From positions 1 to 54,197 of the IMG/VR virus record IMGVR_UViG_3300010160_000057: a stretch of 54,197 nucleotides of DNA; one strand, 5' to 3'. The position numbers and the translations under genes are program-made. Positions 12,382 through 53,162 of the stretch are shown here, in pieces. The notes beneath the pieces were generated by a model. The model saw only the letters and a list, made by a program, of their open reading frames with translations. It was not told the DNA's origin and searched no databases. The stretch is from a virus. Its lineage: Duplodnaviria; Caudoviricetes. Each line of letters starts with the position of its first letter. Positions within the stretch are counted from its first letter, which is position 1.

Positions 12382-12784
12382 AACAGAACAAGACTTAAAA
12401 AGAGAACACAAAGCAATAACAACATTCGTAAATACATTTGGAGGTTCCTTCAAAAAATTAGACCCACACGATGTTGACTACAAGATATTCGATAAAGAAG
12501 GAAAGCTAATAGCTTATGCTGAGGTGAAAGGCAGAATAAGAACTATGCACAATGCTTATCCTCTTCCGGTAGCAGCAAGAAAGATTGTTAAGTTAGTAGA
12601 TAAGAGATTACCTCCGGTGATGATATGGTCTTGTGAAGACGGTATTATATACGGAAAAATTGATAAACTAATAGGAGAAGTTAAGTGGGGTGGTCGTGCC
12701 CCACGTAACGGCTCCGTTAATGATTTAGAACTTATGGTGTTCTATGAAAAACAAAAAGACTTAAAGTATATTAGATTTCTTTAA
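12371..12784 (+). CDS. putative PD-(D/E)XK nuclease
   Basis: VDY...AEVKGR motif. Confidence 0.55.
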   Translation: MTFETEQDLKREHKAITTFVNTFGGSFKKLDPHDVDYKIFDKEGKLIAYAEVKGRIRTMHNAYPLPVAARKIVKLVDKRLPPVMIWSCEDGIIYGKIDKLIGEVKWGGRAPRNGSVNDLELMVFYEKQKDLKYIRFL

Positions 12785-24267: not shown

Positions 24268-27200
24268 TTATGTTTCACACCCACAAGATATATAAATTAC
24301 TCCAATTTTTTCTACATTAGTAAATGGAAGTCCTATTGAGCAATATGAAACATCTATAGCTTCTGAGGCAAGTGTATTTGAAGTTAAAATTCCATTTTCA
24401 TTATAATAAAATACTTGAACGTCATCAGACCCCGGAGGATTAGTAACTGAATAAGAATTGTAAGGGGTTGGACAGCTTGTGTTACAAACGCAACATACAT
24501 CAAAAGAACTTACTCCAAAGCACAAAGATACTTCAACTGCACAAGGTGCGCAAGTTTGTTGAGGTAATAATACGCCATCAATTGTTAATTCTCTTACTAT
24601 TCCTCCTAATGAATAGAATCCATCTTCCGCAAATGTAGTTAATGTATCGTCAGCCCAAACTGATGTTGCTACATTAAATGCTCCATCTAAATAATATATA
24701 TCAGTAACACAATCACAACAAGAATCAATTCTTGTTTTTGCAAAACACAGTTCAGTTTCAATAGCACTTCTGAAATCCCATATTAGATATAGATAATTAC
24801 CATCTATACTTGCAGGAACTGTGAAGTCTCCGCTATACACAGGAGCACTTCCTGTAATAGGAGTTATTGTAGTTGATGACAATAAAAGAGACTGAATATC
24901 TATGTTATTATTACCATACAATGTATTACTTCTTAAATACCTAAACTTATTATATGTGGTATCAAATACAAAATCATCAGGGACAATAGCATTTGATATA
25001 AGGCTCATTACGCTAGATTCAGGAGGGAATCCTCCTTGTCCTGCAAATCCTGTAGTGATATTATATCTTGACACAACAGGTGATGTAGTATCAATTATAA
25101 ATGGTACTAAATTAGATAAAAGAGGTCCTACAAATGATAAATTAGTATATCTATATTGAGTATGAATAGTCTTACCTGCCTCTGAATTATTAGTTAAAAC
25201 TACCTCAACTATATTTAATTCTTCAGCTTCAGTACATTCTGCAGTTACAGAAACAGTCATATCTCCTGTATAGGTAAGGGTTATTTGTGCTGTTTGTATT
25301 AATATGTTATCTTTATTAAATGTAATTTGCCCATCTGTATCTACAGGACCTGAAGTTACTGTAACACCATTGTACAAAACACTTACCTCAAGTGTTTTTC
25401 CTGACTCAATGTTTGCAAATTCCCATCTTATATTGGTATTACCTACAGTAGGACCTAAGTCAACACAATATATTTGCGTTTTAGACACTTCAACTCCTAC
25501 AGACAAAGTAAATGTTTGAGATATTCCGCAATCCAAACATTGAGGATTTATAGGAAGTTGTTGGTCGTTCATAGACAATACATACTCATTCATATAAGGG
25601 TCAAAGCCTCCAAGTTTTTGGTAATTAAATGACGAATTAAACTCATCTCTAAACCAAGTTCTCATGTTTTGGTCAGATGTTACTATTAATTGTTCATTTT
25701 GGTCTTCACCACCTTTTAATTGAATAACAGAACCACGTTTTGCGTCAGTAAAAAATCTATCGTAACCCCATTGAACATAGCTCTCAGGATTAAAACTAAT
25801 ACCATACTTTTCAGTACGTGCTATTTGCGTTCCTAAGACCTCAGGTGTAGCTGTAATTATACCTCCGGCACTTGCATCTGATAATAAATTTTTCTCTGCT
25901 AAAACGTAAGATATTTTATCTTCTTGTAAACAAAGAATATCTGTATTTCTACCATCTAAATATTGTATTTCTCCAAACGAACCTTCACAATGTTTAAAGT
26001 TTAATAAACCTGAATTAAACTCATTTAATTTATTAATATTACTCTCTCCATTATAAATACCACTATAAGTAATATCTGAAAATCTATCAGCCATTTTATA
26101 ATCTTGAGCAGCAACTGTAGTTACTCTCTCTCCAAAGTTGAATGATTTTCCAATAAGTGAATCACGTATTTTATAACTTTCTGCTCCGTTTCCAAAAGTA
26201 AAACAATTATAAAAACCGGTGTCAATTATAGCGGGTAATGATGATGTTTGGTTTTGAATATTACCATCATGATAACCATTTGAATCAATAGCAAATGATA
26301 AATTATTTTCAAAAAATACATCAGGTAAAGCATCAGACGGTTCTGTTTCCCATATAATAGTATTTATTGCTCTAAATACAGTTAACGATACAGAAACTTC
26401 AGAAAATATAAAAAGTTTACCCGAAACCCCTCTTACATTTAACACAAGTCTATTAGTAGTAAGGTTTCTATCAAATTGCATATACATTGTATATCTTTCA
26501 CAAGAAGAAGGAGTTCCAAACCCCGGTATATATTGAATGCTACTTCCTGAACATCCATATACATTAGGATTTGACAATGTTGAAGAGATATTGTCTCCAA
26601 CAAACCAATCATACATATTGTCATAGTTTCTTGAAGATACAAATTCATTAACCCAAGAAGCGCTAAAACACCCAATACTACCTACCTCAGGTCGATATCC
26701 GCTTACAGAAATTTTTATTCTACTCCCTGCAGGAACAGTATAATCTTCATAAATCCAACTAGGGTGTGCAGGGTCAAATCCTGCTGCACGTCCAATATTC
26801 ATAGGATAATCAATAGTAACACATTGGTCAGCAAATGCTCTTTCATAACGATTTCCCGGATTAATAGTAGCATCAGGGTCAACAACAACATTAAATGAAT
26901 TTGGATTTATTTTAATATATAAACCCGCTAACACAGGTACATTTTCTTTAGGAACAATAAAATTAGAAGATTGTGATTTTTTATCAAGAACAGTTGCATA
27001 AGCGCAATTTGTAGTAGGACCTGATGTGTCTGCTTTTACAATTAACCTGTCTCCAATCTCAACTTTTTTAGTATTTTCTCCCTCAATTAAAAAATATACT
27101 TCATTAGTATTTTTATCTGTAAAAAATATATTTGAATATATTGTTTCGTAATTCTCTGCATCAGGTTTAATTACAAACTTATATCTTGTAGCCCAATAAG

Positions 27201-29118
27201 GTGCTATTTGAGTAGGAGGTATAGTAACTTGAATTGTATTTTTACTTGCAGAAGCATCACAAGGTACAAATACTGTATTAGTTTGACTTACTAATGCTGT
27301 AGTTGAACGATTAAATTCATCCATATACACTATACCTATTTCATACCCTCTATTACTATGTAAACTTGAAGGGTTTCCTATTTCTTGAAAAGTAGCTAAT
27401 GCGTATGTAAAATCATAATATTCATAAACTCTTTGAGTAGGAGTTGTTAAAGAATTAACATATTCCATTGCAGGAATTTGTAATCCAATTATATTACTTG
27501 CGGGAGTTGAAATTATTTTTATTGGTTGTAGTATAGAATTTATACCACTTCCATATTTTAAAAGAGAACCTAAATTGGCAGGAAGAAAACAATTAAAAGA
27601 ATCTGTTAAAGTAGTTCCATCACAAGATGTTTGAACACCCGGTGTTGAACTATAAACAGGTTTTATATTAGCTGCTGTTCCTATAGCTAAAGTAAATTCA
27701 GGGCTTGTAGCTAATGCATATACTGATGAATAATTTGTTGATAAATTAAATACAAATTCTAAAACTACAAAATCAGTTGTTTCTGTTGGAAAAGGAAGAG
27801 AGCCTGTAAAAGTAGAATGAGTTAATGATAAATTTATAGTTATAGACGAACCTGCTACCAAATTTATTCCTGTTAAATCAAAAGTTACAATAGAATCAGT
27901 AATAGTTTGACCTAATGCCGATGGGTCTATATTATAAATACCATTATCCGTAGAATCAGGGATAGAAGTTTGACCTATAGCTTCAGACGTTAAAGATGTT
28001 GTGTATTCAATTTTAACAGGTACTTCTTTTTCGTCAATTAAATCATATCCCTCTACATAATTTCCATACATTAACCTATTACCCATAATAGTTTGAGCTT
28101 TAGCAAAACGAGGAACATTATCATAAAGTCTTAAAATCTCAGCCTCATTTAATACTGTAAATATCTTACTATTATTAAAAGAATATTGTAAAACTTGATT
28201 ATCTACACCACCTAAATCTGCTGCTTTATCAAGTTGTTCAATAATTTTAATTATATTTTTATTTGATTCTTTAAATAATAAATCGACACCAACAACAAGT
28301 GGTCCTCCTGAATTATACTCAATTATTGAAGTATTGCAAGAATTAACCATACCTTCATTTAACATACTATTTATACTAAACTCAAAAGGCTGAGGTATAA
28401 AAGCAGGTTCTGACCATTGAGAAGTAGCCGAGTATTCTCCATCAACATATTTATATCTATATGCAAAACATATAAATCTTGTTTCTAAAAAATTCTCTTG
28501 TCCACTTGTTTTAATTGGAATTATAGTTGGAGACTCAATAGGTGGTTTTTTTATAACAAGTAAAGCCTCTGCTGAAACTTGGTCAATATCGCTAATAGGA
28601 TTTGGATACCTATTTCTAACAGGTCTTATATTTATAAATCTTGGAGGATTATAATCGTCTGTAAAAAATATTAAATTATCAATAAGACTTACTCCTGTTA
28701 TAAGATAAGTTGAGTTAAAGTTTAATGTAGTATCTATACCTCCGCCATCATCTATACTGATGACGTGATACGTTAGTACATCCCTTAATACATTATAAGA
28801 TACAATTAAATCAAGTTTTCCCGTAGCTCCAACGGTAAATGTTGGATCATGTACAAACCAATAGATTGTTTCATTAGCACTATCTTCAATAGCACCAATA
28901 CATCTTGCATTTGCACTTAAAGATGTTCCATCAACAATATAAGCTAATTTAGTCAATGGTAAATTGCCTTTTGTATTAGTAATAACTCCTACTTCTGATT
29001 TTTCAGTAGAACCCATTCTAATATTCATAGCATCAACATACTCACTTTCAGGAAGAAGTCTTTGGTCAACGACCTTATTCATTCTACCTGCTAAAAAATT
29101 TCTTGTGAAATTGCCCAT
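24268..29118 (-). CDS. tail stabilisation/nozzle (tail tubular B-like) protein (1616 aa)
   Basis: GRMNK..DQRLLP.SEYVDAMNIR N-terminus, beta-propeller-like body, YGIS.NPES, GGFDP..NEYVLS. Confidence 0.7.
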   Translation of the reverse strand: MGNFTRNFLAGRMNKVVDQRLLPESEYVDAMNIRMGSTEKSEVGVITNTKGNLPLTKLAYIVDGTSLSANARCIGAIEDSANETIYWFVHDPTFTVGATGKLDLIVSYNVLRDVLTYHVISIDDGGGIDTTLNFNSTYLITGVSLIDNLIFFTDDYNPPRFINIRPVRNRYPNPISDIDQVSAEALLVIKKPPIESPTIIPIKTSGQENFLETRFICFAYRYKYVDGEYSATSQWSEPAFIPQPFEFSINSMLNEGMVNSCNTSIIEYNSGGPLVVGVDLLFKESNKNIIKIIEQLDKAADLGGVDNQVLQYSFNNSKIFTVLNEAEILRLYDNVPRFAKAQTIMGNRLMYGNYVEGYDLIDEKEVPVKIEYTTSLTSEAIGQTSIPDSTDNGIYNIDPSALGQTITDSIVTFDLTGINLVAGSSITINLSLTHSTFTGSLPFPTETTDFVVLEFVFNLSTNYSSVYALATSPEFTLAIGTAANIKPVYSSTPGVQTSCDGTTLTDSFNCFLPANLGSLLKYGSGINSILQPIKIISTPASNIIGLQIPAMEYVNSLTTPTQRVYEYYDFTYALATFQEIGNPSSLHSNRGYEIGIVYMDEFNRSTTALVSQTNTVFVPCDASASKNTIQVTIPPTQIAPYWATRYKFVIKPDAENYETIYSNIFFTDKNTNEVYFLIEGENTKKVEIGDRLIVKADTSGPTTNCAYATVLDKKSQSSNFIVPKENVPVLAGLYIKINPNSFNVVVDPDATINPGNRYERAFADQCVTIDYPMNIGRAAGFDPAHPSWIYEDYTVPAGSRIKISVSGYRPEVGSIGCFSASWVNEFVSSRNYDNMYDWFVGDNISSTLSNPNVYGCSGSSIQYIPGFGTPSSCERYTMYMQFDRNLTTNRLVLNVRGVSGKLFIFSEVSVSLTVFRAINTIIWETEPSDALPDVFFENNLSFAIDSNGYHDGNIQNQTSSLPAIIDTGFYNCFTFGNGAESYKIRDSLIGKSFNFGERVTTVAAQDYKMADRFSDITYSGIYNGESNINKLNEFNSGLLNFKHCEGSFGEIQYLDGRNTDILCLQEDKISYVLAEKNLLSDASAGGIITATPEVLGTQIARTEKYGISFNPESYVQWGYDRFFTDAKRGSVIQLKGGEDQNEQLIVTSDQNMRTWFRDEFNSSFNYQKLGGFDPYMNEYVLSMNDQQLPINPQCLDCGISQTFTLSVGVEVSKTQIYCVDLGPTVGNTNIRWEFANIESGKTLEVSVLYNGVTVTSGPVDTDGQITFNKDNILIQTAQITLTYTGDMTVSVTAECTEAEELNIVEVVLTNNSEAGKTIHTQYRYTNLSFVGPLLSNLVPFIIDTTSPVVSRYNITTGFAGQGGFPPESSVMSLISNAIVPDDFVFDTTYNKFRYLRSNTLYGNNNIDIQSLLLSSTTITPITGSAPVYSGDFTVPASIDGNYLYLIWDFRSAIETELCFAKTRIDSCCDCVTDIYYLDGAFNVATSVWADDTLTTFAEDGFYSLGGIVRELTIDGVLLPQQTCAPCAVEVSLCFGVSSFDVCCVCNTSCPTPYNSYSVTNPPGSDDVQVFYYNENGILTSNTLASEAIDVSYCSIGLPFTNVEKIGVIYISCGCET

Positions 29119-31948: not shown

Positions 31949-33367
31949 TTAACCGTAACGGAATAATACAAAGTTATTTGCACCTAAAGTACATACACAT
32001 CTTTCAGATAGGAAGTTAACCTCCATTGCATCTAAGTCAGAATTTTGAGCACCTCCGGCAGAACCTGTAATCCAAGTTTTGTAACGTCTGTCCTCAGCTT
32101 CAGAAGCACGGTATCTTACGTGTAAGAATGGTCTCTTAGCGTTTTTACCTAAGATTTGGTCATATACAGAAGTAGAACCTGCAGGTACCATAAGTCCTGT
32201 GATTGTACCTGTTGCAGTAGCTGCAGTAGTATTTAAACCACCTCTCATTGTAGGGTCGTTTAGGTATTTCCAATCAGATTTGTAGAAATCATAACCTCTA
32301 CGGAATCCTGTGAATCCTAAGTTTAATGCCATATCAACATCATTGTCGAATAAACCGAAAGATGCAGACTGAGCAACACCACCTGAAGTATAACCATTCA
32401 ATGTAGCTAACATATTGTCGATGTCAAAAGACAATCCACGATTAACAAACACTACGTTTTCTTCGATAGCTCCTTGTTTGTCTAAACGAGAAACGATAGA
32501 ATCCCAATCAGATAAAGTAGTTGGTGTACCACCACCCCAAACATTTCCTCTTGAGTTAACAACGTAGAAAATACCTTGAGAACCAATTAAACCTGTAGAA
32601 GTAGCATTAGTAGTGTTAGCCATAGGAACAGCTTCAATCATAGCAGTTTCTAAGTAATCTTCGAAACGTAAACGAGTTTCGTGCTCTGATTTCAAATACC
32701 ACAAGTAACCTGTAGCACCATTTTCAGTAGTAACTTCAACCCATCCGATTTGAGCCATATCAGAACCATTAACCGAATATTTATCTTTAATGATAATTGG
32801 GTTATTGCTGAAGATGTCATCTTCTGCCTCTAATGAACCAACCATTCCGTTAGTTCCTTTTCTAAACTCAGAACCATAAATAAATACAGTACAAGCAGTA
32901 GATACAGCGAAAGCTTGTCCTCCTGATTCATAGAAAGCTACTGTAAAAGTAGTTGCTGATGGAACAGCAGTAACAACTGCTTTGTTGTAAACTCCTGAAG
33001 AGTTGTTTTGAATCATAACAGTTTGTCCAACTCTAATTGCGATGTAAGTAACACCTGAATCAGCTACAGTGAAAGTAGCAGTGTTTGAAGCTGCTGCAGC
33101 TCCTGAAGTTACATTGGTATACTTAATGTGAAGACGACCTTGTTCTGCCCATTTAATTTGGTCAGAGTTAGAAGGCATCTCAGCACCTACCATTCTCAAG
33201 AATGATGCGATGGTTCTATTACCATATCTTTCAAATTCTTTCTCATAGGTATCAGGAAGATACTGATTCAAGAAGTTAAAGTTGGTAATGTAGTTTGTTG
33301 ATAACGCTACTTGCTCCGCTGACGGTTGTAATGCATAAGTAGGCGTTGATAATAAAGCACTTGCCAT
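31949..33367 (-). CDS. major capsid protein
   Basis: 472 aa after portal and scaffold, followed by a strong terminator; QYLPD.YEKEFERYGNR, WAEQGRLH, FLSERC motifs recognised from flavobacterial podovirus capsids. Confidence 0.8.
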   Translation of the reverse strand: MASALLSTPTYALQPSAEQVALSTNYITNFNFLNQYLPDTYEKEFERYGNRTIASFLRMVGAEMPSNSDQIKWAEQGRLHIKYTNVTSGAAAASNTATFTVADSGVTYIAIRVGQTVMIQNNSSGVYNKAVVTAVPSATTFTVAFYESGGQAFAVSTACTVFIYGSEFRKGTNGMVGSLEAEDDIFSNNPIIIKDKYSVNGSDMAQIGWVEVTTENGATGYLWYLKSEHETRLRFEDYLETAMIEAVPMANTTNATSTGLIGSQGIFYVVNSRGNVWGGGTPTTLSDWDSIVSRLDKQGAIEENVVFVNRGLSFDIDNMLATLNGYTSGGVAQSASFGLFDNDVDMALNLGFTGFRRGYDFYKSDWKYLNDPTMRGGLNTTAATATGTITGLMVPAGSTSVYDQILGKNAKRPFLHVRYRASEAEDRRYKTWITGSAGGAQNSDLDAMEVNFLSERCVCTLGANNFVLFRYG

Positions 33368-39268: not shown

Positions 39269-39482
39269 TACTTTCTTTTTCAGATTCTATTCTATTTAGA
39301 ATCTCAAATGCATCAAAAATAGCTAACTTTTTTGTTGCTGCTGCATTTTTTAATTTATCAGCCGCTAAATCATCTCCTTCCATATCAGGATTTAAGATTG
39401 ATTCTTCTGCAACTTTAATAAGTTCTGTTACTGCTCTGTAACCGGCAGAAATAATTTTTAATTTTACTTCTTTATTTGTCAT
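39198..39482 (-). CDS. putative terminase small subunit
   Basis: Small helical protein immediately upstream of terL. Confidence 0.5.
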   Translation of the reverse strand: MTNKEVKLKIISAGYRAVTELIKVAEESILNPDMEGDDLAADKLKNAAATKKLAIFDAFEILNRIESEKESIEISEKGGSKTDTKQGFAERRSK

Positions 39483-40042
39483 AACTTAATCGTTATTTGG
39501 TGGTCATACATACGATATAGTTTCTCTCCATCTACGGTAAACTCATATTCACTATCGGGAGAAAAACAAACGTAATCATCTTTTTTAACTCCTTGACTTA
39601 ATAAGTATTCATTTGGATAAACCATTTGACCCATTAAAGGTTCTTCTGAAAAAGGTTTTTTAATATACGATTCAATTGCAGGAATTGGTCTAACAAAACA
39701 ATACCTATCGTAAGAATACCAAGTATCTCCTTTTTTATACATAAAAAATTGTTCTGTTTCTATAAAGAATAAATCATCTTTAAAAAAGCTCTTTCCGCTT
39801 TTTTGACGACCTCTCATATCATTATAAAATTTAAATGCATTGTGATGCACAAGAAGAGTGTCTCCTATTGATATAGGACCATCATAGCCAACGGGTAATT
39901 CAATAACTTCTGCAAATCTATTAGAAAACTTATGGTCTTCTTCAGAGGTACTAACTATAAATTCAATACCTCCTATATTTCTTGTGTTATCGTATCTTTT
40001 CCCATTTATAGGCTTTGCTATAAAGTAGAATGGTGATTTCAT
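39479..40042 (-). CDS. GroES-like protein (two tandem GroES-like domains)
   Basis: FIAKP...AEVIELP...IGDTLL, then FVRP...GQMVY...GVKKDDYVCF....EYEF.VDGEKLY.M....I. Confidence 0.55.
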   Translation of the reverse strand: MKSPFYFIAKPINGKRYDNTRNIGGIEFIVSTSEEDHKFSNRFAEVIELPVGYDGPISIGDTLLVHHNAFKFYNDMRGRQKSGKSFFKDDLFFIETEQFFMYKKGDTWYSYDRYCFVRPIPAIESYIKKPFSEEPLMGQMVYPNEYLLSQGVKKDDYVCFSPDSEYEFTVDGEKLYRMYDHQITIKL

Positions 40043-45796: not shown

Positions 45797-46179
45797 TATT
45801 CAATTGTTAAAGTTATATTTTTTGCTAATTGCATTTTTTTAAATAATTTTTCAAAAGCCAATCTGCTATTGCCTATAAAATCATTTGAACGTGTAGTTCC
45901 TACTAAAATACAACCTTCTGTATCATGGTTGGTATTACCTGAATGTATTCTTACACCCTCAAAATTTGGAACATTAAGTAATATTGGTAATAACTTTTTA
46001 AATCTATTGCTTAAAGTTATTCCAACTATATAAGTACCTTTTGGTATTGCTGTCTCTGATTTGATTTTTACTTCACGTTCTACATCTTCTAATGTATAGC
46101 ATTCAAATTTACCATCAACATAAAGTTCTCCAATTGTAGAATGTTCTGTTTTGTGAAGTCTTTTAAGTGTAAGTTTCAT
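45796..46179 (-). CDS. putative endolysin (DUF5675-like peptidase)
   Basis: STIGEL, CYTLED, TAIP.G.Y, GVRIHSGN...DTEGCILVG. Confidence 0.7.
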   Translation of the reverse strand: MKLTLKRLHKTEHSTIGELYVDGKFECYTLEDVEREVKIKSETAIPKGTYIVGITLSNRFKKLLPILLNVPNFEGVRIHSGNTNHDTEGCILVGTTRSNDFIGNSRLAFEKLFKKMQLAKNITLTIE

Positions 46180-46610
46180 TATTGTAAATCTCCTATATCT
46201 GTTTTAATTTCTTTCGCTCTAAGAAATGCTTTTTTAAGTAATGCCCAAATATCTATTTTAAACGAAGCCTCTATATTTTCTTTAATTGATACTAACTCAA
46301 TAAAAATTAAAAGTATCGCACATATTTTTGTAAACATAAATTGGAATCCAAACCATTTAAAAATAAACTCATTCAATACAAACTTATCAATTACAAAAAG
46401 AAGTAAAATACATACTTCGTATAATGCCATTTTTGAAATAATATTAGAAAGTATGCGGCTTCTAATACTACACCAACCTCCTAATTTTATACTTTTAAAA
46501 ATACCCGTGAATGTATCAAGAGCTATAGCAGTACCAACCGCAATTAAAAGTCCATATATAGGAACGAATAAAAGGACTAAAGAAGATAATATGTATTTTA
46601 AGTATTTCAT
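46179..46610 (-). CDS. holin
   Basis: Multiple TM helices, D..TG..KS and E..SI.EN motifs; adjacent to the endolysin. Confidence 0.75.
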   Translation of the reverse strand: MKYLKYILSSLVLLFVPIYGLLIAVGTAIALDTFTGIFKSIKLGGWCSIRSRILSNIISKMALYEVCILLLFVIDKFVLNEFIFKWFGFQFMFTKICAILLIFIELVSIKENIEASFKIDIWALLKKAFLRAKEIKTDIGDLQ

Positions 46611-46744
46611 TATCTTCCTTGTCCTTTATAAGTTTTAACGTAGTTCTTACTTGACTTTAATTTACTCGTTTTAGTTTTTGCTGCTACTCCTGTTTTTTTA
46701 GGTTTAGGTTGATAAGCACTCTCTTGTATTTTAACCTTTGCCAT
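46610..46744 (-). CDS. small basic protein (44 aa)
   Basis: Read manually: MAKVKIQ...KNYVKTYKGQGR; TAATG coupling to the holin. Confidence 0.65.
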   Translation of the reverse strand: MAKVKIQESAYQPKPKKTGVAAKTKTSKLKSSKNYVKTYKGQGR

Positions 46745-46745
46745 T

Positions 46746-47234
46746 TTACCACATTGCGTTTACAAGAGTTGCTGTTGTTCCTGTTGCTCTAAGTTTTAAA
46801 ACTTGAATTGGAAGAGTAGTTCCTGCAGGTACACCATTAAATGTAATTTGGTCACCTCCTATTGTTATAACTGATACATTTCCTGTTCCTCCAATATATA
46901 AAAAAGCACCTGTATTTCCTAATCCTGCTTGAGCAGATGCTGAATAAACAATATAAGTTTGCGCTGTAGAAGTAAAAATATCAGCATTTAATGTAAGTTG
47001 AGTTTCACTATCCACACTAACAACAGTTGCTGAAGTAGATGCAGTATCATTATGAACTATATCTCCCGGAAAAACAGGATTAGTTATAAATGTTGCAGCA
47101 GAGTTTATTAATTTTAATGCTGTAGCAGTAGTATTTGTACCTGTTGAATTAACAGCACCGGGATATGCAAGGTTTGCATTATCTGAAGGATGTGCTCTAT
47201 TTACTCTTGTAAATGTTGTTTTAAATACTGACAT
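46746..47234 (-). CDS. putative virion structural protein
   Basis: LYIGGTGNV.V...F.GVPAGT.LPIQV....ATGTTAT. Confidence 0.6.
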   Translation of the reverse strand: MSVFKTTFTRVNRAHPSDNANLAYPGAVNSTGTNTTATALKLINSAATFITNPVFPGDIVHNDTASTSATVVSVDSETQLTLNADIFTSTAQTYIVYSASAQAGLGNTGAFLYIGGTGNVSVITIGGDQITFNGVPAGTTLPIQVLKLRATGTTATLVNAMW

Positions 47235-47239
47235 AGTTT

Positions 47240-47413
47240 TTAATTTTTATAAAATGTTTTGTTTATTAACAAATCAGGGTTGTTAAGATTTTCTTTTCTT
47301 TTATTACAACCACATTCTTTTCCTGTAGCTTGTGAAACTTTTTCAACTACTTTTTTAATTCCTGTAGCTGCAGTAATTTTTTCGATTGTGTCTCCTAATC
47401 CTTTTGATTTCAT
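47240..47413 (-). CDS. small protein MKSKGLGDTIEK...CGC (57 aa)
   Basis: Read manually; fills the gap; GLGDT..K.T.ATGIK...CGC..RK motif familiar from related phages. Confidence 0.7.
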   Translation of the reverse strand: MKSKGLGDTIEKITAATGIKKVVEKVSQATGKECGCNKRKENLNNPDLLINKTFYKN

Positions 47414-47425
47414 TGTGTAAAGATA

Positions 47426-47641
47426 TTAAATTTTATTAGATTTTATTTTTTTGACGTTGCCTTTTAAATAAGACATTTTCCCATTAAGGGAACTTTTTGA
47501 TTCGTACTGTTTTGCCTTATCAGTTATTTTCTTTTCTTGTTTAATCATCTCTGTTGTTGGTTTTTTACCTGAACCTTTAGATGCTCTGATATTATTCCAC
47601 AAAGAATTTTTAACTCCGAGTTTATTTAACTTTTCTTTCAT
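47426..47641 (-). CDS. small basic hypothetical protein
   Basis: ORF track. Confidence 0.55.
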   Translation of the reverse strand: MKEKLNKLGVKNSLWNNIRASKGSGKKPTTEMIKQEKKITDKAKQYESKSSLNGKMSYLKGNVKKIKSNKI

Positions 47642-47931
47642 CAGTATTTTCCTTTACGATTTTTTGGGTTTGGTGTTGTTGAACCCCCCGATCCTGCCCA
47701 TAAATTTTTACAAGCCCAATACCTTGGAGTTAGTTTGTCATTAGCTGTATCACAACTATGTCTTGCCTTAAAACTTCTTCGAGCAGCAGGAGAATAATTA
47801 TTTCCATAACCCTTTGCTCCAAAATGGAGAAGTTTTTCCTCTCCATTGGAACAAGCTTTTACCATCTTCTTCTTTCCGGGTCTATCGGAAGGAACAGGAT
47901 GATTACACTTCATATTTGCTTTATCAGCCAT
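47641..47931 (-). CDS. basic Cys/His-containing hypothetical protein
   Basis: HFGAKGY...RSFKARH.C...RYWAC. Confidence 0.7.
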   Translation of the reverse strand: MADKANMKCNHPVPSDRPGKKKMVKACSNGEEKLLHFGAKGYGNNYSPAARRSFKARHSCDTANDKLTPRYWACKNLWAGSGGSTTPNPKNRKGKY

Positions 47932-47934
47932 TGA

Positions 47935-48075
47935 TTATGAAAAAAAATCTCTACTTGGATGTCCTGCTTGAGGAACAACTACTTCAGCTTCAACTTTCTC
48001 AACTTCAACTGTTTCAGGAGTAACTACTTCAGGAGCTACAACTTCAACATCTACTGTTTCTTTTGACTTTGCCAT
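47935..48075 (-). CDS. small acidic V/E/P-rich protein (46 aa)
   Basis: Read manually: MAKSKETVDVEVVAPEVVTPE...GHPSRDFFS. Confidence 0.6.
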   Translation of the reverse strand: MAKSKETVDVEVVAPEVVTPETVEVEKVEAEVVVPQAGHPSRDFFS

Positions 48076-48094
48076 TTTAATTCTATTTTAAAAA

Positions 48095-48286
48095 TTAACA
48101 ATAAGGATTTTTCTTTTTCAATCCTGTTCCTGATGCAGCAGTTAGAACTCTTTTAGAAGTTCCTTTGCTACCACCTTTCATACCACCATGTTCTTGAATC
48201 AATCCGTTAGTTCCATTAGAACTCGTGCTTGGTCCTTGTAAACGAGATGAACCCGGTAAGTTTGGAGTGTCTTTAATTTTACCCAT
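48095..48286 (-). CDS. small protein with DTPNLPGSSRL N-terminal motif
   Basis: ORF track. Confidence 0.65.
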   Translation of the reverse strand: MGKIKDTPNLPGSSRLQGPSTSSNGTNGLIQEHGGMKGGSKGTSKRVLTAASGTGLKKKNPYC

Positions 48287-48450
48287 TATTTCTTTTTGAT
48301 TACAGTTTTAACAATTCCTTTTAATGCTCCTGTAACCGCTCCTTTAGCAGCTCCTTTTAGTGCATTTTTAATAGCAGGTTTTGCTGCTGCTGTTGGTGCT
48401 TTCAATTTTGATGAAGCAGGTAAATTCGGTGTTGATTTTGCTTTTGCCAT
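48286..48450 (-). CDS. small cationic protein with STPNLPASSKL motif (54 aa)
   Basis: Read manually: MAKAKSTPNLPASSKLKAPTAAAKPAIKNALKGAAKGAVTGALKGIVKTVIKKK; TAATG-coupled. Confidence 0.7.
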   Translation of the reverse strand: MAKAKSTPNLPASSKLKAPTAAAKPAIKNALKGAAKGAVTGALKGIVKTVIKKK

Positions 48451-48476
48451 TTTGTTTGTATTTGTGTTAGTAATTA

Positions 48477-48731
48477 TTATTCTTTTTCTCTTCCTGTTGA
48501 GTTTCTAAAAGAAGCCAATCCATATAAGCTTCCTCCTGCTATATCTTTTTTTTCTCTACTTCTAGCTATTCTTGCTTCATTAAGTTTTGCACGAGTCTCC
48601 TTCATTGAAGCTGTTCTTTCAGCTTGTCTTTTATTTATATCAGCTAATGCTGATTTCAAATCGTTAACCGGTGCTTCAACATCAGGACTATCTGCTAAAG
48701 GAGTATCCTTTCTTTCTTGTTTTTTTGCCAT
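48477..48731 (-). CDS. tag-bearing small protein 5 (RKDTPLADSPD)
   Basis: ORF track; shared N-terminal motif. Confidence 0.7.
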   Translation of the reverse strand: MAKKQERKDTPLADSPDVEAPVNDLKSALADINKRQAERTASMKETRAKLNEARIARSREKKDIAGGSLYGLASFRNSTGREKE

Positions 48732-48737
48732 GTCTTA

Positions 48738-49082
48738 TTAGTTTGATTTCATACAAGCTCCTCCTTTACAAGGAGATTTAGGTCCGTTATCACCTGCAAA
48801 GAAAGTTCTTTCTCCTTTAGGTTCCTTAGCTTTATAAGAATTTTCTTTTGTTCTTTGGTCAAATTTATTATACCACTGCTCAAAAGAATCCCCTTTTTGT
48901 TTTTCTTTTGATTCATCATAAGATTTCTTATAGATAATCTTTCTTTTCTCAGTTTTTATTGAGTCAATTTTTTGTCTTGGAGTAAGAACAACCTTTGGTT
49001 TAATTGTATCATTAACCGCCATGAATCTTGGTTCAGGGGTTGCAGCTAATGGAGTGTCGGGTCTTTTTTGATTGATTGCCAT
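48738..49082 (-). CDS. tag-bearing small protein 4 (RPDTPLAATPEP)
   Basis: ORF track; shared N-terminal motif. Confidence 0.75.
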   Translation of the reverse strand: MAINQKRPDTPLAATPEPRFMAVNDTIKPKVVLTPRQKIDSIKTEKRKIIYKKSYDESKEKQKGDSFEQWYNKFDQRTKENSYKAKEPKGERTFFAGDNGPKSPCKGGACMKSN

Positions 49083-49084
49083 AA

Positions 49085-49525
49085 TTATGATATATTTGCT
49101 TTTCTTAATTTTAATAAATCTTTTTTATCAGATGCTGTTAAGTTTTTCTTACTTCCTGATGTTACGTTATAATAATTTGCATTATTATTTCTACGTTGCA
49201 TAGTATCTGTACTATCTCTAACATACTCTTTTCTCAAATCCTCTCTACTTTTCTGAGAACCTGTAACAGATTTTTTAACTGTTTTATTTCCTGAATCCAC
49301 AATTAAAGCATCGCTTCTATTTTTATCTGCCGGAATAAATCTTTTCTCATAAGGCTTAGCCGTAGCTTTACCATCTGACACATTTAATCCCGCAGGAACT
49401 TTTCCTCCCTTTTCGTTTTTAGCTTGATTAGTCTGTACCTTCTCATATCTTGACGTAAAAGAAAAGTTAGGAGTAGGTGTTTCAGCTAAAGGAGTGTCGG
49501 GTCTTTTAATTATTTTATCAGCCAT
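49085..49525 (-). CDS. tag-bearing small protein 3 (RPDTPLAETPTP)
   Basis: ORF track; shared N-terminal motif. Confidence 0.75.
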   Translation of the reverse strand: MADKIIKRPDTPLAETPTPNFSFTSRYEKVQTNQAKNEKGGKVPAGLNVSDGKATAKPYEKRFIPADKNRSDALIVDSGNKTVKKSVTGSQKSREDLRKEYVRDSTDTMQRRNNNANYYNVTSGSKKNLTASDKKDLLKLRKANIS

Positions 49526-49527
49526 TT

Positions 49528-49737
49528 TTATTGTTGTTGTTGGTTATTAGACGGAGCAGGTGCTGCAGGCTGTGGCATACTTTCTTTTGAAAGCTTTCCT
49601 ATTTGTTGAATAGCTGCATCAGCTGTAGCTTGATATTTAGTAATAGGCTGTGCCGGTGCTTGACCCATAGGTTGTAATCCTGAGCTAACAGGTTGCGGTT
49701 CCGGTGTATTCGCTAATGGTGTATCAGGTCTTTGCAT
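49528..49737 (-). CDS. tag-bearing small protein 2 (RPDTPLANTPEP)
   Basis: ORF track; shared N-terminal motif; P/Q-rich. Confidence 0.75.
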   Translation of the reverse strand: MQRPDTPLANTPEPQPVSSGLQPMGQAPAQPITKYQATADAAIQQIGKLSKESMPQPAAPAPSNNQQQQ

Positions 49738-49739
49738 TG

Positions 49740-50027
49740 TTATTTTATTTTATATCCGTTTTTATCATAACCGATTTTTCCTTTATCAGATTGTCTAAGT
49801 TGATTTGAAATTGCTTTGTTTTTTTCAGAAACTAAATTTCTCATCTCTTGACTTTTTTTATTATCATTCTTATCGTTAGAAATAAATCTTGGAAGATTTG
49901 GTATTACTTTTTTTATTTTTTCATTTACCTCTTTAACTTTATTTCTAAAATATACTGTACTATCTTTAGGGATAGGTGTTTCCGCTAATGGGGTATCAGG
50001 TCTGCTTATTTTTTTAGGTTGTAACAT
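49740..50027 (-). CDS. tag-bearing small protein 1 (RPDTPLAETPIP)
   Basis: ORF track; shared N-terminal motif. Confidence 0.75.
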   Translation of the reverse strand: MLQPKKISRPDTPLAETPIPKDSTVYFRNKVKEVNEKIKKVIPNLPRFISNDKNDNKKSQEMRNLVSEKNKAISNQLRQSDKGKIGYDKNGYKIK

Positions 50028-50048
50028 TGTTATATCTATTTTAATTGA

Positions 50049-50067
50049 TAACTTTGTAGCAAATGTA
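50049..50067. promoter_or_regulatory. two overlapping, oppositely oriented -7 promoter elements
   Basis: TAACTTTG (+, 50049-56) and TACATTTG (-, 50060-67). Confidence 0.65.
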
Positions 50068-50082
50068 GTAAATTTATTTTAA

Positions 50083-50526
50083 ATGAAATCAAATCAAGAC
50101 GATTATCTAAAATATTGGAGAGTCATTCGCCAATTCGTAAAAATCAAATATGGACTAACACAGTCAGACCTTGACATCCTATTGTTCTTATACTCTGAGA
50201 AGTATTTTGATAGAGGAAAGTTTGAAGAGTTTGACAACCTTCTAGGGTGGGATAAACAAAGATTTGAGAACTTAAGACAAGCCGATTGGATTGTTGTCTT
50301 TAGAAAAAGAATGGGAGCTAGAAAAGCTATATACCAATTATCAATCAAGTCAGTTCGTATGATTCAATCTATATATAGAAAACTAAGCGGGGAAGAAATC
50401 CCCGTTAGTAGTTCTAATAATAAAATGTTTGCTAAGAACGTATCTTACTCAGATAAAGTCTATCGCAATATGATTATCGAGATGAATAAACTTATAAAAC
50501 AACAACGACATCAGACTCGCGAATAA
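50083..50526 (+). CDS. putative winged-helix (MarR-like) DNA-binding protein
   Basis: YGLTQSDLDILLFL...L...WI......YQLS pattern; the only convincing + strand gene in this arm. Confidence 0.6.
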   Translation: MKSNQDDYLKYWRVIRQFVKIKYGLTQSDLDILLFLYSEKYFDRGKFEEFDNLLGWDKQRFENLRQADWIVVFRKRMGARKAIYQLSIKSVRMIQSIYRKLSGEEIPVSSSNNKMFAKNVSYSDKVYRNMIIEMNKLIKQQRHQTRE

Positions 50527-50749
50527 TAGTATATTGCTTGTCCTCAATTAGCATTGTAAATCCGTGTGCTTTATCATAGTAAATGTCATCATCCTTTTTG
50601 ATATGAGGCACCTCTGTACCCGATTCAATTACTATTCCACGTTTGTATCTCATTTGGTTAACATCTTCTCCCGATAATATTAATCCTGATTCTGTTTTCA
50701 ATTCTTCATCAATTGTTTTGATGACAATGTATTTACCTATTGGTTTCAT
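50492..50749 (-). CDS. groES: co-chaperonin GroES
   Basis: MKPIG..IVI...E.KTESGLIL...G.V...G...I...D.I....IRESDVV. Confidence 0.85.
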   Translation of the reverse strand: MKPIGKYIVIKTIDEELKTESGLILSGEDVNQMRYKRGIVIESGTEVPHIKKDDDIYYDKAHGFTMLIEDKQYTIIRESDVVVVL

Positions 50750-51230
50750 CTGTTTTTCTTTTTATATTTTTTGCTCTAAAATTATCTGTTTGTGAGTGGC
50801 AATTGGGACATAGTACTTGTAAGTTTGAAGACTCATTATTGTTATTAACTCCATCAATATGATGAACCTCAAGAGTAATTGGTTCTCCCAACCAATCTGA
50901 AAGATTGCAAATTTCACATTTGTACTCTGCTTTTTTTAACATTATTTTTCTTAAGGTTTGAATATGAAGCTTCTCTCCGTTCAAATACTTTTGGTTTGTT
51001 TTTCTATCCCAAGTATCTTTACTCTTTTGCTTCTTTGTTGGTGAATTGTTTAAAATAAAAAAGTCAACACTATCCATTACACCTTTCTTCCAATTACTAA
51101 TAGCCTTCTTACTTATCTTGTCTTTAGAATCTGAAGTATGTGGTCTCCCATTTCTACAAGCCAAACTACAAAAGTTTATTAAACCTTTTTGAACTTCAAA
51201 CGAACTGTTGCATTTTTTACAAAGCTTCAT
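50733..51230 (-). CDS. HNH homing-type endonuclease
   Basis: CEIC, LEVHHIDG...NN...NLQVLCPNCH; N-terminal zinc finger and NUMOD3-like H...SK.KIS; start moved to 51230. Confidence 0.85.
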   Translation of the reverse strand: MKLCKKCNSSFEVQKGLINFCSLACRNGRPHTSDSKDKISKKAISNWKKGVMDSVDFFILNNSPTKKQKSKDTWDRKTNQKYLNGEKLHIQTLRKIMLKKAEYKCEICNLSDWLGEPITLEVHHIDGVNNNNESSNLQVLCPNCHSQTDNFRAKNIKRKTDETNR

Positions 51231-51354
51231 TAAATCTTTTTTTAATTTTATCAATTACTACTTTAACCTCAGCAGCTCTCTCGTAATTTTTTTCAATAAT
51301 ATGCTTTGCCTTTAATTTTTCTAAAGATTCTAATATTTTGTCAATAGTGTCCAT
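51217..51354 (-). CDS. UVR (UvrB/UvrC-like) coiled-coil microprotein (45 aa)
   Basis: Read manually: MDTIDKILESLEKLKAKHIIEKNYERAAEVKVVIDKIKKRFNEAL. Confidence 0.55.
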   Translation of the reverse strand: MDTIDKILESLEKLKAKHIIEKNYERAAEVKVVIDKIKKRFNEAL

Positions 51355-51358
51355 TGTT

Positions 51359-51571
51359 TTATTTTTTAGATTCATCTTTCCAATTCAGCCAAAAACCAAT
51401 TGCAACAATTATGTTCATTCCCATTGATGCCACTATCTCATAAATGTCCTCATAAATATTTAAACTTAGGTGAACGTGACCTACCACCCAAAATGGTATT
51501 GATAGGTTACACGCCACCCATATTATTGTAAATCTTACAAATTGTTTAAACTTGTGGCTCTTCGTGTCCAT
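51359..51571 (-). CDS. small two-TM membrane protein
   Basis: Two hydrophobic segments; directly after groEL. Confidence 0.6.
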   Translation of the reverse strand: MDTKSHKFKQFVRFTIIWVACNLSIPFWVVGHVHLSLNIYEDIYEIVASMGMNIIVAIGFWLNWKDESKK

Positions 51572-53162
51572 AACTACGTGCCATTGTTACTATAGCGTTC
51601 GTACTTAGAATTGTTACCGCAACTGATATTGCATTTTGTAATGCAGACCTTGTAACTTTCAGCGGGTCAATAACACCCATCTTAATTAAGTCACCGTACT
51701 TACCTGTCTTAAGATTATAACCTTCGCCATTAATCAATGACCCTTGGTAGATGTCCTCTACTTTCAATCCTGCGTTAGTTAAGATTTGGATAAGAGGTGC
51801 CTGTAATGCTTCACCAAGAATTTTAATAGCAGCTAAGTGCTCTTTACTTACTGACTCAATACCTAAGAAGCTTTCCTCAAACAATGCTTTACCTGCACCC
51901 GGTAAGATGCCTTCCTCTAATGCTGAACGTACTGCACATACAGCGTCATCTACTCTGTCATACAATTCTTTCTGCTCTAAGTCAGTTTGTCCGCCCACAA
52001 AAATCACGCCAATTCCTCCTGTTAATGAAGCAATTCTCTCCAATAAAAAGTCTTTATCACCTTTCTTATTTGCATTTTTATGCGCCTCCCATAACTGAGC
52101 TACTCTCTCATCAACAACAGCTTGATTGGTACGTGCATCTGACTTAATAATTACAGTCTTGTCTTTACTTACAATTACTTTAGAAGCGTGTCCTAAATCA
52201 CCGAAGTTCATAATACTTAAATCATCACCGGTCTTCTCACTAAAATAAGTAGCACCTACACTAACTGCAATGTCATGCATCAACTCGTGTTGCTTGTATC
52301 CAAAACTTGGAGGAGCAACAGCACATATCTTTACACTACCTTTCATTACATTCGCTGCCAATGTGTTTATCACATTTACATTACAAGGAGAGATAATTAA
52401 TAACTTCTTCCCCTCTGTAATAATTGGTTTCAATATGTTCTCAATCTGCAAAATGTTTGCAATCTCCATATCAGCTACCAATACCATCACATCTTCAAGA
52501 ACACACTCGTCTTTCTTTTGGTCATTGATAAACATAGGACTTAAATACCCTCTGTCGAATTTCAATCCCATAGTGGTCTCTGCATAAGTCTCATCGTTCT
52601 GACTCTTTTCCACCGTTACAATACCATTCTTTCCAACGTCTTTGTAAACCTCAGCGATAATCTTCCCTGTCTCACGGTCATTGTTAGCCGATATAGTAGC
52701 TACATCTGATAACATACCAATTGATACCTTCTTGCTACGTCTTCGTAGCTTGTCAACTACCTTATCACTCAAATCATTTAAGTGTCTTAACACCTCTGTT
52801 CTATTCAAGTCCTCAGTTATGTGAACTAATCCACCTAACACTAAAGCCTCAGTAAGAACAATAGCAGTTGTTGTACCATCACCCGCAGATGAAGCGGTAC
52901 GCTCAGCAGCTTCCTTCATCATCTTAACAGCAAGGTTCTCAGAAGGGTCAAATAAGTCAATTGATTTGGCAACAGTTACACCATCTTTAGTAACAGTGAT
53001 ACCATGAGTATGGTTTGGACTTTCAATAAGTACAGTATTCCCTCCGGGACCTAATGTACTCTTAACAGCTTTGGACATTTTAATAACGCCACTTACTAAT
53101 TTTTTCCTACCATTGTCACCAAAGAACAAATCTTTAGGAGAATAACCTTGATTTTCTAACAT
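51546..53162 (-). CDS. groEL: chaperonin GroEL
   Basis: AVKSTLGPGG, TKDGVTVAK, AGDGTTTA, FDRGYLSP, RVDDA, GVIDP.KVTRSAL; no GGM tail. Confidence 0.95.
   Translation of the reverse strand: MLENQGYSPKDLFFGDNGRKKLVSGVIKMSKAVKSTLGPGGNTVLIESPNHTHGITVTKDGVTVAKSIDLFDPSENLAVKMMKEAAERTASSAGDGTTTAIVLTEALVLGGLVHITEDLNRTEVLRHLNDLSDKVVDKLRRRSKKVSIGMLSDVATISANNDRETGKIIAEVYKDVGKNGIVTVEKSQNDETYAETTMGLKFDRGYLSPMFINDQKKDECVLEDVMVLVADMEIANILQIENILKPIITEGKKLLIISPCNVNVINTLAANVMKGSVKICAVAPPSFGYKQHELMHDIAVSVGATYFSEKTGDDLSIMNFGDLGHASKVIVSKDKTVIIKSDARTNQAVVDERVAQLWEAHKNANKKGDKDFLLERIASLTGGIGVIFVGGQTDLEQKELYDRVDDAVCAVRSALEEGILPGAGKALFEESFLGIESVSKEHLAAIKILGEALQAPLIQILTNAGLKVEDIYQGSLINGEGYNLKTGKYGDLIKMGVIDPLKVTRSALQNAISVAVTILSTNAIVTMARSYGHEEPQV

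Follow-up and report, generated by a model that had tools for sequence, protein, structure and literature searches.

A portable proline-rich peptide carried by unrelated small proteins in an abundant lineage of uncultured Bacteroidota-type podophages

The subject of this analysis is an array of small genes in the IMG/VR virus record IMGVR_UViG_3300010160_000057, a linear record of 54,197 bases estimated to be 89% complete, which was taken at its full length and is called the window here. Five consecutive open reading frames (ORFs) on its minus strand (50027-48477), separated by gaps of 2, 2, 2 and 6 nt, each encode the peptide R-[PK]-D-T-P-L-A-x-[TS]-P close to the N-terminus of the protein. 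This peptide, referred to below as the tag, reads in array order RPDTPLAETPIP, RPDTPLANTPEP, RPDTPLAETPTP, RPDTPLAATPEP and RKDTPLADSPDV, and its Arg is residue 9, 3, 8, 7 and 7 of the respective protein. The five genes are as follows; the letters denote families of the bodies that lie behind the tag.

50027-49740, minus strand: tagged protein 1, 95 aa, Lys-rich; tag RPDTPLAETPIP encoded at 50003-49968; body outside all five families compared
49737-49528, minus strand: tagged protein 2, 69 aa, P/Q-rich, body family B; tag at 49731-49696
49525-49085, minus strand: tagged protein 3, 146 aa, body family C; tag at 49504-49469
49082-48738, minus strand: tagged protein 4, 114 aa, body family D; tag at 49064-49029
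48731-48477, minus strand: tagged protein 5, 84 aa, helical and R/K/E-rich, body family E; variant tag RKDTPLADSPDV at 48713-48678

The presence of a common tag in five neighbouring small ORFs, first proposed from inspection of the letters alone (the original prediction), is borne out. A degenerate DNA pattern for R-P-D-T-P-L-A, allowing up to two mismatches, has exactly five matches in the window, all of them in these ORFs, against a mean of 0.05 and a maximum of 1 in 100 dinucleotide-preserving shuffles. A profile of the tag, which itself includes these five rows, also finds exactly five matches in the window at E<=10. The four exact matches to the DNA pattern vary solely at its N/Y positions (CCC/CCT, GAC/GAT, ACT/ACA/ACC, CCA/CCT), while the 51-nt DNA copies of the tag region are just 63-78% identical, with their differences concentrated in third codon positions. 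Because the changes are synonymous and the DNA has diverged to this extent, selection acts on the tag peptide and not on a DNA repeat, just as the original prediction had concluded from the tag codons.

The tag is widespread in related uncultured phages. A codon-restricted pattern scan of IMG/VR located at least 80 loci on 75 contigs, 23 of these loci having 2-4 matches. The tag profile (A1, 19 rows, with D-T-P-L-A invariant and the Arg and the later Pro at least 90% conserved) was then searched in the whole records behind 50 of the 75 contigs, one of which had supplied profile rows; 49 of the 50 records matched at E<=0.01 and 46 at <=4e-8, with 1-6 matches per record. The matched open frames encode 53-219 aa, bar two weak and probably chance matches in frames of 19 and 337 aa. 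Records that share the capsid gene and are rated 100% complete have 1, 4, 3, 4, 2 and 2 tagged ORFs. A search of 1.84 billion representative proteins with the profile gave 59 matches at E<=0.001, of which 58 (36-213 aa) proved true on reading; one candidate, P0155, was rejected as an unrelated repeat protein. In 56 of these 58 the match to the tag starts at residue nine or earlier. At least 12 body types could be told apart by eye among the 58, and no fixed residue follows P-L-A (E, N, A, D, P, S, T, R and Q all occur). The expectation that the tag would stay constant in related phages, with the number, order and identity of the tagged proteins varying at the locus, has thus held up in the IMG/VR relatives. 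Conservation in relatives at large has a limit, however: the tag is present in 49 of the 50 IMG/VR records and absent from all seven GenBank relatives tested, two of which have no match to a fully degenerate D-T-P-L-A pattern and five no match to the profile at E<=1.

The tag DNA pattern, in codon-restricted form, gave 24 scattered single matches in 596 Gb of prokaryote genomes (nine of them in Mesorhizobium), none of them clustered or in a Bacteroidota-titled sequence. As far as such a codon-restricted scan can tell, then, the tag does not appear to be host-derived. In the literature searched, the peptide strings themselves gave three hits, all of them irrelevant, and the profile had no match among PDB chains at E<=10.

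Several kinds of variation bear on whether the tag belongs to the proteins that carry it. A further family (G, about 100 aa, starting 'MPDLR.GQ') carries the tag at the C-terminal end or close to it, as seen in three independent sequences (L007 3317-3610, L034 5316-5618 and P0167), which corrects the view that the tag is strictly N-terminal. Family E is tagged in the window and in the IMG/VR loci L081, L083, L037 and L007; the L034 copy (6309-6584) and the one from the complete genome behind L005 (12399-12638) have no tag. The tag is doubled in P0170 and P0145, and in P0164 an insert lies between tag and body. Within family D the first 18 or so alignment columns are nearly invariant, while the bodies are 30-40% identical. 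Array gene order and content vary among the genomes of the syntenic IMG/VR loci: family D in L037 has moved about 4 kb, to a position behind the lysis cassette; four further loci have a third pattern copy at a similar distance from the array; and relatives carry single tagged genes between small genes of the structural cluster or after the lysis cassette. Since the tag may be C-terminal, may be present or absent within one family, may be doubled or set apart by an insert, survives reshuffling of the array and is conserved in family D far beyond the body that follows it, it is, as far as comparison of these sequences goes, a separable module and not the conserved end of one gene family. RPDTPLAxTPxP is accordingly described here as a portable short linear motif under strong purifying selection, which lies in an unstructured terminal extension and is joined to at least a dozen unrelated small proteins of one lineage, mostly Lys-rich and helical or of low complexity.

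The bodies were compared by collecting orthologs from the syntenic IMG/VR loci, cutting off the tags, aligning five families and comparing their profiles with hhalign. These families are A (motif 'DSxDYKxGF', absent from the window), B (P/Q-rich), C (the 146-aa type), D (the 114-135-aa type) and E (the helical 84-aa type). All ten pairs of tag-free profiles scored at a probability of 0.3% or less (E 0.21-0.87), with profiles that are shallow (3-6 rows, Neff 1.4-2.5) and sequences that are low in complexity; nor is there a match between family A and the body of tagged protein 1 (95 aa). The claim that the bodies behind the tag are unrelated to each other is thereby upheld, and the full-length paralogy that would have spoken against an addressing role was looked for at the profile level and not found. 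In an AlphaFold2 (AF2) model of family C a moderately confident core of short strands and a long helix (residues 50-120, pLDDT 71-88) follows a tag region devoid of secondary structure (pLDDT <50), while the model of family D has two low-confidence helices behind 34 unstructured residues, with the tag at a pLDDT of about 57.

Searches with the tagged proteins themselves returned little. The PHROG and Pfam collections contain no internal head protein family matching the five tagged proteins at E<=0.1, and PHROGs gave nothing informative, and no internal head protein family at E<=0.05, for 10 further ones. The tagged 146-aa protein has no tblastn match among GenBank phages, scores no higher than 0.81 in the ESM Atlas, where its matches are viral clusters without names, and, when its residues 1-40 served as a homology query, returned just two near-identical proteins from a word index that is insensitive to the motif alone; the family C model had no Foldseek match in BFVD at E<=0.001. 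There is also no sign of large or enzymatic cargo, all of the tagged proteins found being small.

The array is bounded by a control region and a divergent gene on its upstream side and by four small genes downstream.

50083-50526, plus strand: divergent 147-aa protein, PHROG 17028; homolog in MW202828.1, the nearest GenBank record, annotated 'repressor protein'
50028-50082: control region, 55 bp between the array and the divergent regulator gene
48450-48286, minus strand: small Lys/Gly/Ala-rich protein, 54 aa; second N-terminal motif STPNLPASSK
48286-48095, minus strand: small Gly/Ser/Lys-rich protein, 63 aa; N-terminal motif DTPNLPGSSR, C-terminal NPYC
48075-47935, minus strand: acidic V/E/T-rich protein, 46 aa; conserved C-terminal P-G-H-x-x-R-x-F
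47931-47641, minus strand: basic 96-aa protein; matches part of PHROG 220 'minor head protein and DNA pilot' (1.3e-16)

The control region is kept in six genomes (the window, L081, L037, L083, L007 and L034). A TACATTTG box at 50067-50060 points to the array and an opposed TAACTTTG box to the regulator gene; the two are opposed, overlapping boxes of the form TAnnTTTG, surrounding the near-palindrome TTTG(C)TACAAA. A box of this type is what we take to be the -7 promoter element of Bacteroidota. Judged from its sequence, the region resembles an operator or a pair of divergent promoters that exclude each other, and the 147-aa protein is a likely regulator of the array promoter. The leftward promoter that had been placed at 50060 stands as a putative one, insofar as a conserved box of the right type lies at 50067-50060; a scan for sigma-70 promoters gave 21 sites against 18.7 expected. 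No minus-strand terminator was found inside the array by a terminator scan.

The two proteins encoded at 48095-48450 have a second motif in common, K-x-T-P-N-L-P-x-S-S-[KR]..P, which resembles the main tag with a one-residue insertion. Unlike the five tagged proteins, this pair can be aligned over its full length, and the two are true paralogs; all of the tag-bearing relatives read have them where the array ends. The acidic 46-aa gene follows the array in seven of the eight tag-bearing genomes read and is missing from L035 and from MW202828.1; its product may be a partner of the basic proteins. The 96-aa gene marks the conserved downstream boundary of the array. Downstream of this gene in L083 (7093-7293) lies one for a 66-aa Lys-rich protein with the looser tag start M-N-R-D-Y-P-L-A-P-T, and the strict profile may miss some members of the motif family.

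The window comes from an uncultured Bacteroidota-type phage, one of a lineage of abundant podophages of about 60 kb that are kin to the Flavobacterium Elemovirus and the Cellulophaga Pervagoviridae phages. PHROG matches identify a terminase large subunit (TerL), a portal and a major 'virion structural protein'. The nearest GenBank record, MW202828.1, is an uncultured podophage from a freshwater spring, with an identity of 77% in the portal and 70% in the capsid protein. Further removed are Maribacter phage Panino, the Elemovirus phages of Flavobacterium, and those phages of Cellulophaga and Tenacibaculum that belong to the Pervagoviridae and Pachyviridae. The capsid protein (31949-33367) is represented by at least 8000 clusters at 90% identity in a collection of 5.8 billion proteins, the best 120 of them 91-100% identical to it, and the lineage must on this count be very abundant. 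In MW202828.1 the whole array is absent, its place being occupied by an HNH gene together with one for an unrelated protein of 158 aa; elemoA has a homolog of the 96-aa gene immediately next to its GroEL genes.

The genome is divided into two blocks. The plus-strand block encodes Sak, PDDEXK nucleases, a Dam methylase, a primase-helicase and an SNF2 helicase, while the minus-strand block comprises the array, the GroEL and GroES genes, small genes of the virion cluster, lysis genes and the genes for terminase, portal, a scaffold-like protein, capsid, muzzle and giant proteins. The muzzle is recognised from a virion protein of 1616 aa (24268-29118), residues 6-237 of which match Pfam PF25731 crAss_MUZ (9e-11, 41 bits against a cut-off of 27). 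This match, in a phage of about 60 kb outside Crassvirales, covers the N-terminal part of the crassvirus muzzle family and suggests, at the level of sequence, that a crass-type tail architecture is common to Elemovirus and the Pervagoviridae-like flavobacterial podophages. Searches of the PDB by phmmer with the 307-, 347-, 247- and 1616-aa virion proteins gave nothing significant.

A flexible, proline-rich, portable peptide at the end of unrelated small proteins has the anatomy of a short linear docking motif with a common reader. Our preferred, though tentative, reading, to which we give somewhat less than an even chance, is that small basic proteins are recruited into the virion by way of the tag, which would act as a docking peptide in analogy with the capsid-targeting sequence (CTS) of phage T4. 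All of the tagged proteins would then dock via the tag on one common partner, most likely a component of the assembling virion such as the capsid interior, the scaffold, the portal, or the tail barrel and muzzle. Made late in infection, the interchangeable small basic proteins would be built into the particle as internal or ejected proteins, following the capsid-targeting logic of T4 in a phage with no recognisable prohead protease, and the bodies would have their effect on the DNA inside the particle or in the cell just infected.

A reader in the virion is judged the most likely for four reasons. The tagged genes sit among late, virion and lysis genes, even where they are dispersed. The bodies are small and Lys-rich, like the T4 internal proteins, which contact DNA according to the part of the source consulted (PMC3012670), and the turnover of the repertoire resembles that of the T-even internal-protein locus as portrayed there. 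Finally, the phage has a crass-type tail, and such tails store cargo and dock short cargo segments in the portion of the crAss001 structural account that we consulted (PMC10172136). The array strand is the one that also carries the GroEL/ES, lysis, terminase, portal, capsid and muzzle genes, the replication and recombination genes lying on the opposite strand, and the PHROG 220 domain protein downstream of the array supports a virion context. Taken as a whole, the genomic context favours a virion role, short of demonstrating it. A more specific form, in which the tag is a protease-independent and position-independent virion-loading label for swapping small effector or DNA-coating proteins in this abundant freshwater lineage, is possible but rather doubtful.

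A number of points weigh against recruitment into the virion. The tag occurs in none of the seven GenBank relatives tested, and any virion proteome of a cultured relative would for that reason have no bearing on it. No receptor for the tag was found by a complex prediction with the capsid protein and the scaffold-like 365-aa protein, which scored 0.00 with the verdict 'no answer' and is evidence neither way. No prohead protease family was recognised among the head-module proteins scanned, from terminase to muzzle, in a window that represents about 89% of the genome, so the core binding and cleavage of T4 cannot be literally transferred. A conserved promoter box of host type and a divergent regulator next to it belong to the array itself, which may therefore be expressed early. 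MW202828.1, for all its closeness in portal and capsid, is without the whole array, so the tagged proteins are dispensable for building such particles. The tag is found on small proteins only and, in contrast to some packaged effectors, none of these has an enzymatic domain. A very distant common origin of the bodies is also conceivable, given the shallow profiles and the low complexity of the sequences.

Two alternatives would give the tag no addressing function. The repeat could be a nucleic-acid element, that is, a translation-initiation signal or a regulatory RNA or DNA repeat at gene starts, with the peptide as its by-product; it does return at the 5' end of successive genes as a 51-nt direct-repeat family, yet the DNA copies are no closer to each other than the 63-78% given above, the changes being mostly synonymous third-position ones under an invariant peptide, and the same peptide is encoded near the 3' end of the family G genes. 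This explanation is very improbable indeed and close to refuted. It is improbable, to a lesser degree, that the tagged genes are a diverged paralog family, i.e. tandem duplicates of one small gene in which the N-terminus alone has been conserved because the peptide is the active part, with no addressing involved. The genes are indeed in tandem, small and alike in their Lys-richness, detectable similarity is lost fast in low-complexity bodies, and there are true pairs at the locus, namely the two family A genes in L081 and L083 and the TPNLP pair. Such an origin is at odds, however, with the lack of similarity in 10 of 10 profile pairs and with predicted architectures as different as strands plus helix, two helices and a P/Q-rich chain; nor would simple duplication explain the C-terminal tag of family G, the gain or loss of the tag inside family E, or the doubled tags.

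The other two alternatives retain a function for the tag outside the particle. If the tag bound one cytoplasmic host protein, which the bodies would modulate or block for takeover or anti-defence, no packaging would be needed. Short linear motifs in disordered terminal tails are the usual way for viral proteins to engage host hubs; moreover, the repertoire turns over fast (1-6 genes per genome, shuffled order, at least 12 body types), as accessory genes in an arms race typically do, and the array, which has a conserved host-type promoter box of its own beside a repressor-like gene, is dispensable as a whole in MW202828.1. We nevertheless regard a host hub as unlikely, considering that the tagged genes, whether in the array or dispersed, have virion and lysis genes around them and lie away from the replication/recombination block, that the codon-restricted scan of 596 Gb found no host protein with the same motif, and that the bodies are mostly Lys-rich and of low complexity, with no recognisable inhibitor fold. 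Quite unlikely, too, is a non-structural motif for processing or handling, through which the tag would serve as a degron for a host or phage protease, be cleaved, be phosphorylated by a proline-directed kinase or be bound by the phage chaperonin. Signals of the degron or processing kind are portable, lie at protein ends and tolerate changes of position, which would fit both N- and C-terminal placement; the tag has two T/S-P dipeptides, and the array always adjoins the phage GroES/GroEL genes. Set against this, the window proteins scanned include no recognisable kinase or protease, the position behind P-L-A tolerates many different residues, unlike a defined cleavage site, the profile matched no PDB chain at E<=10, and GroEL/GroES are kept in tag-less relatives, so that the chaperonin does not co-vary with the tag.

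With recruitment into the virion as the working interpretation, comparison with known loading systems is instructive. The internal proteins of T-even phages are described, in the part of the source consulted, as diverse, Lys-rich proteins that contact DNA and have the capsid targeting sequence alone in common (PMC3012670). The analogy drawn in the original prediction is apt as a concept on that description: in T4 as here, a short portable terminal peptide is the sole common part of diverse small basic proteins from a variable locus (PMC3012670, as far as the part consulted goes). There are differences, in that the tagged proteins match no internal-protein family of PHROG or Pfam, the phage is a podophage with a crAss-type muzzle and not a T4-like myophage, a prohead protease is not recognised among its terminase-to-muzzle proteins, the tag is also found C-terminally and in double copy, and the tagged proteins are virion proteins by hypothesis. 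The tag would thus work like the T4 CTS system without being a member of it. The second comparison is with the crassvirus cargo (gp45 and gp46 of crAss001 and RNA-polymerase proteins), since a homolog of the muzzle protein is present in this phage. In crAss001, short cargo segments are described, in the portion of the source at hand, as docking on the portal wings, the ring proteins and the muzzle, with the cargo itself in the capsid and the tail barrel (PMC10172136). That cargo, at 60-277 kDa, differs from the tagged proteins of 36-213 aa, and the same portion describes no common addressing peptide for crAss001 (PMC10172136), whereas one proline-rich peptide is used here.

Two more distant systems differ further. 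The window has no encapsulin, the tag differs by eye from encapsulin cargo-loading motifs, the tagged cargo is non-enzymatic and its binding to a capsid would be hypothetical. Encapsulin cargo-loading peptides are nevertheless comparable in kind, being short, terminal (at either end), present on unrelated cargo, and bound by the interior of an HK97-fold shell. In the Dar system of phage P1, accessory proteins are reportedly packaged in the head via N-terminal targeting, ejected, and protect the incoming DNA; the proteins, the phage type and the dependencies all differ from those here, and the Dar system is not known to us to have a short motif common to many small proteins. An addressing or docking peptide on interchangeable small phage proteins would accordingly be a known principle, of which this tag, different from the T4 CTS, may be a separate instance.

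To our knowledge, how a phage chooses the proteins that it packages is understood for very few systems, mainly T4, and for none of the crass-like and flavobacterial podophages, which dominate many habitats. Here a 12-residue peptide marks a changing set of proteins in a lineage with at least 8000 capsid clusters in public metagenomes. If the tag is a loading signal, it would offer a direct experimental handle, including a target for cryo-electron microscopy (cryo-EM) density, candidate packaged proteins of uncultured phages could be listed from sequence alone, and there would be a tool for putting foreign cargo into particles; as a loading label it would be the first cargo-addressing code in a muzzle-bearing, crass-like podophage. 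If it binds a host hub instead, it would point to a conserved host vulnerability. Under either reading the tag is a clean, testable short linear motif.

Some traces of the locus were seen in RNA runs, where the shares of the locus and the capsid gene are small (<=0.07) and all in the form of contigs. Two freshwater metatranscriptome runs contain short exact pieces of the locus (48289-48439 and 47898-48083) along with capsid-gene pieces, for which DNA carry-over is possible; the depth of these runs cannot rank genes, and neither expression nor timing can be inferred from them.

Further observations concern other genes of the minus-strand block and its surroundings. The giant protein that closes the virion block (12771-19352) has 2193 aa, as against 3859 aa for its counterpart in MW202828.1 (741-12320). 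Its C-terminal part alone matches a PHROG, of unknown function, and its position corresponds to that of the crassvirus cargo genes after the muzzle gene. Two GroES-like genes are present, at 39479-40042 and 50492-50749: the former, of 187 aa, matches PHROG 13932 'co-chaperonin GroES' and lies upstream of the terminase gene, and the latter encodes a canonical 85-aa cpn10 and adjoins GroEL. A gene for an HNH endonuclease (50733-51254, 173 aa) is found between GroEL and GroES in the window, while in L081, L007 and L037 GroES directly follows GroEL. When the region 46000-52000 was compared with phages by blastn, the HNH gene was the sole match. Part of its DNA shows 71-76% identity with HNH genes or hypothetical genes from enterobacterial phages of the T5-like and T4-like kinds, and the product is probably a homing endonuclease of mobile type.

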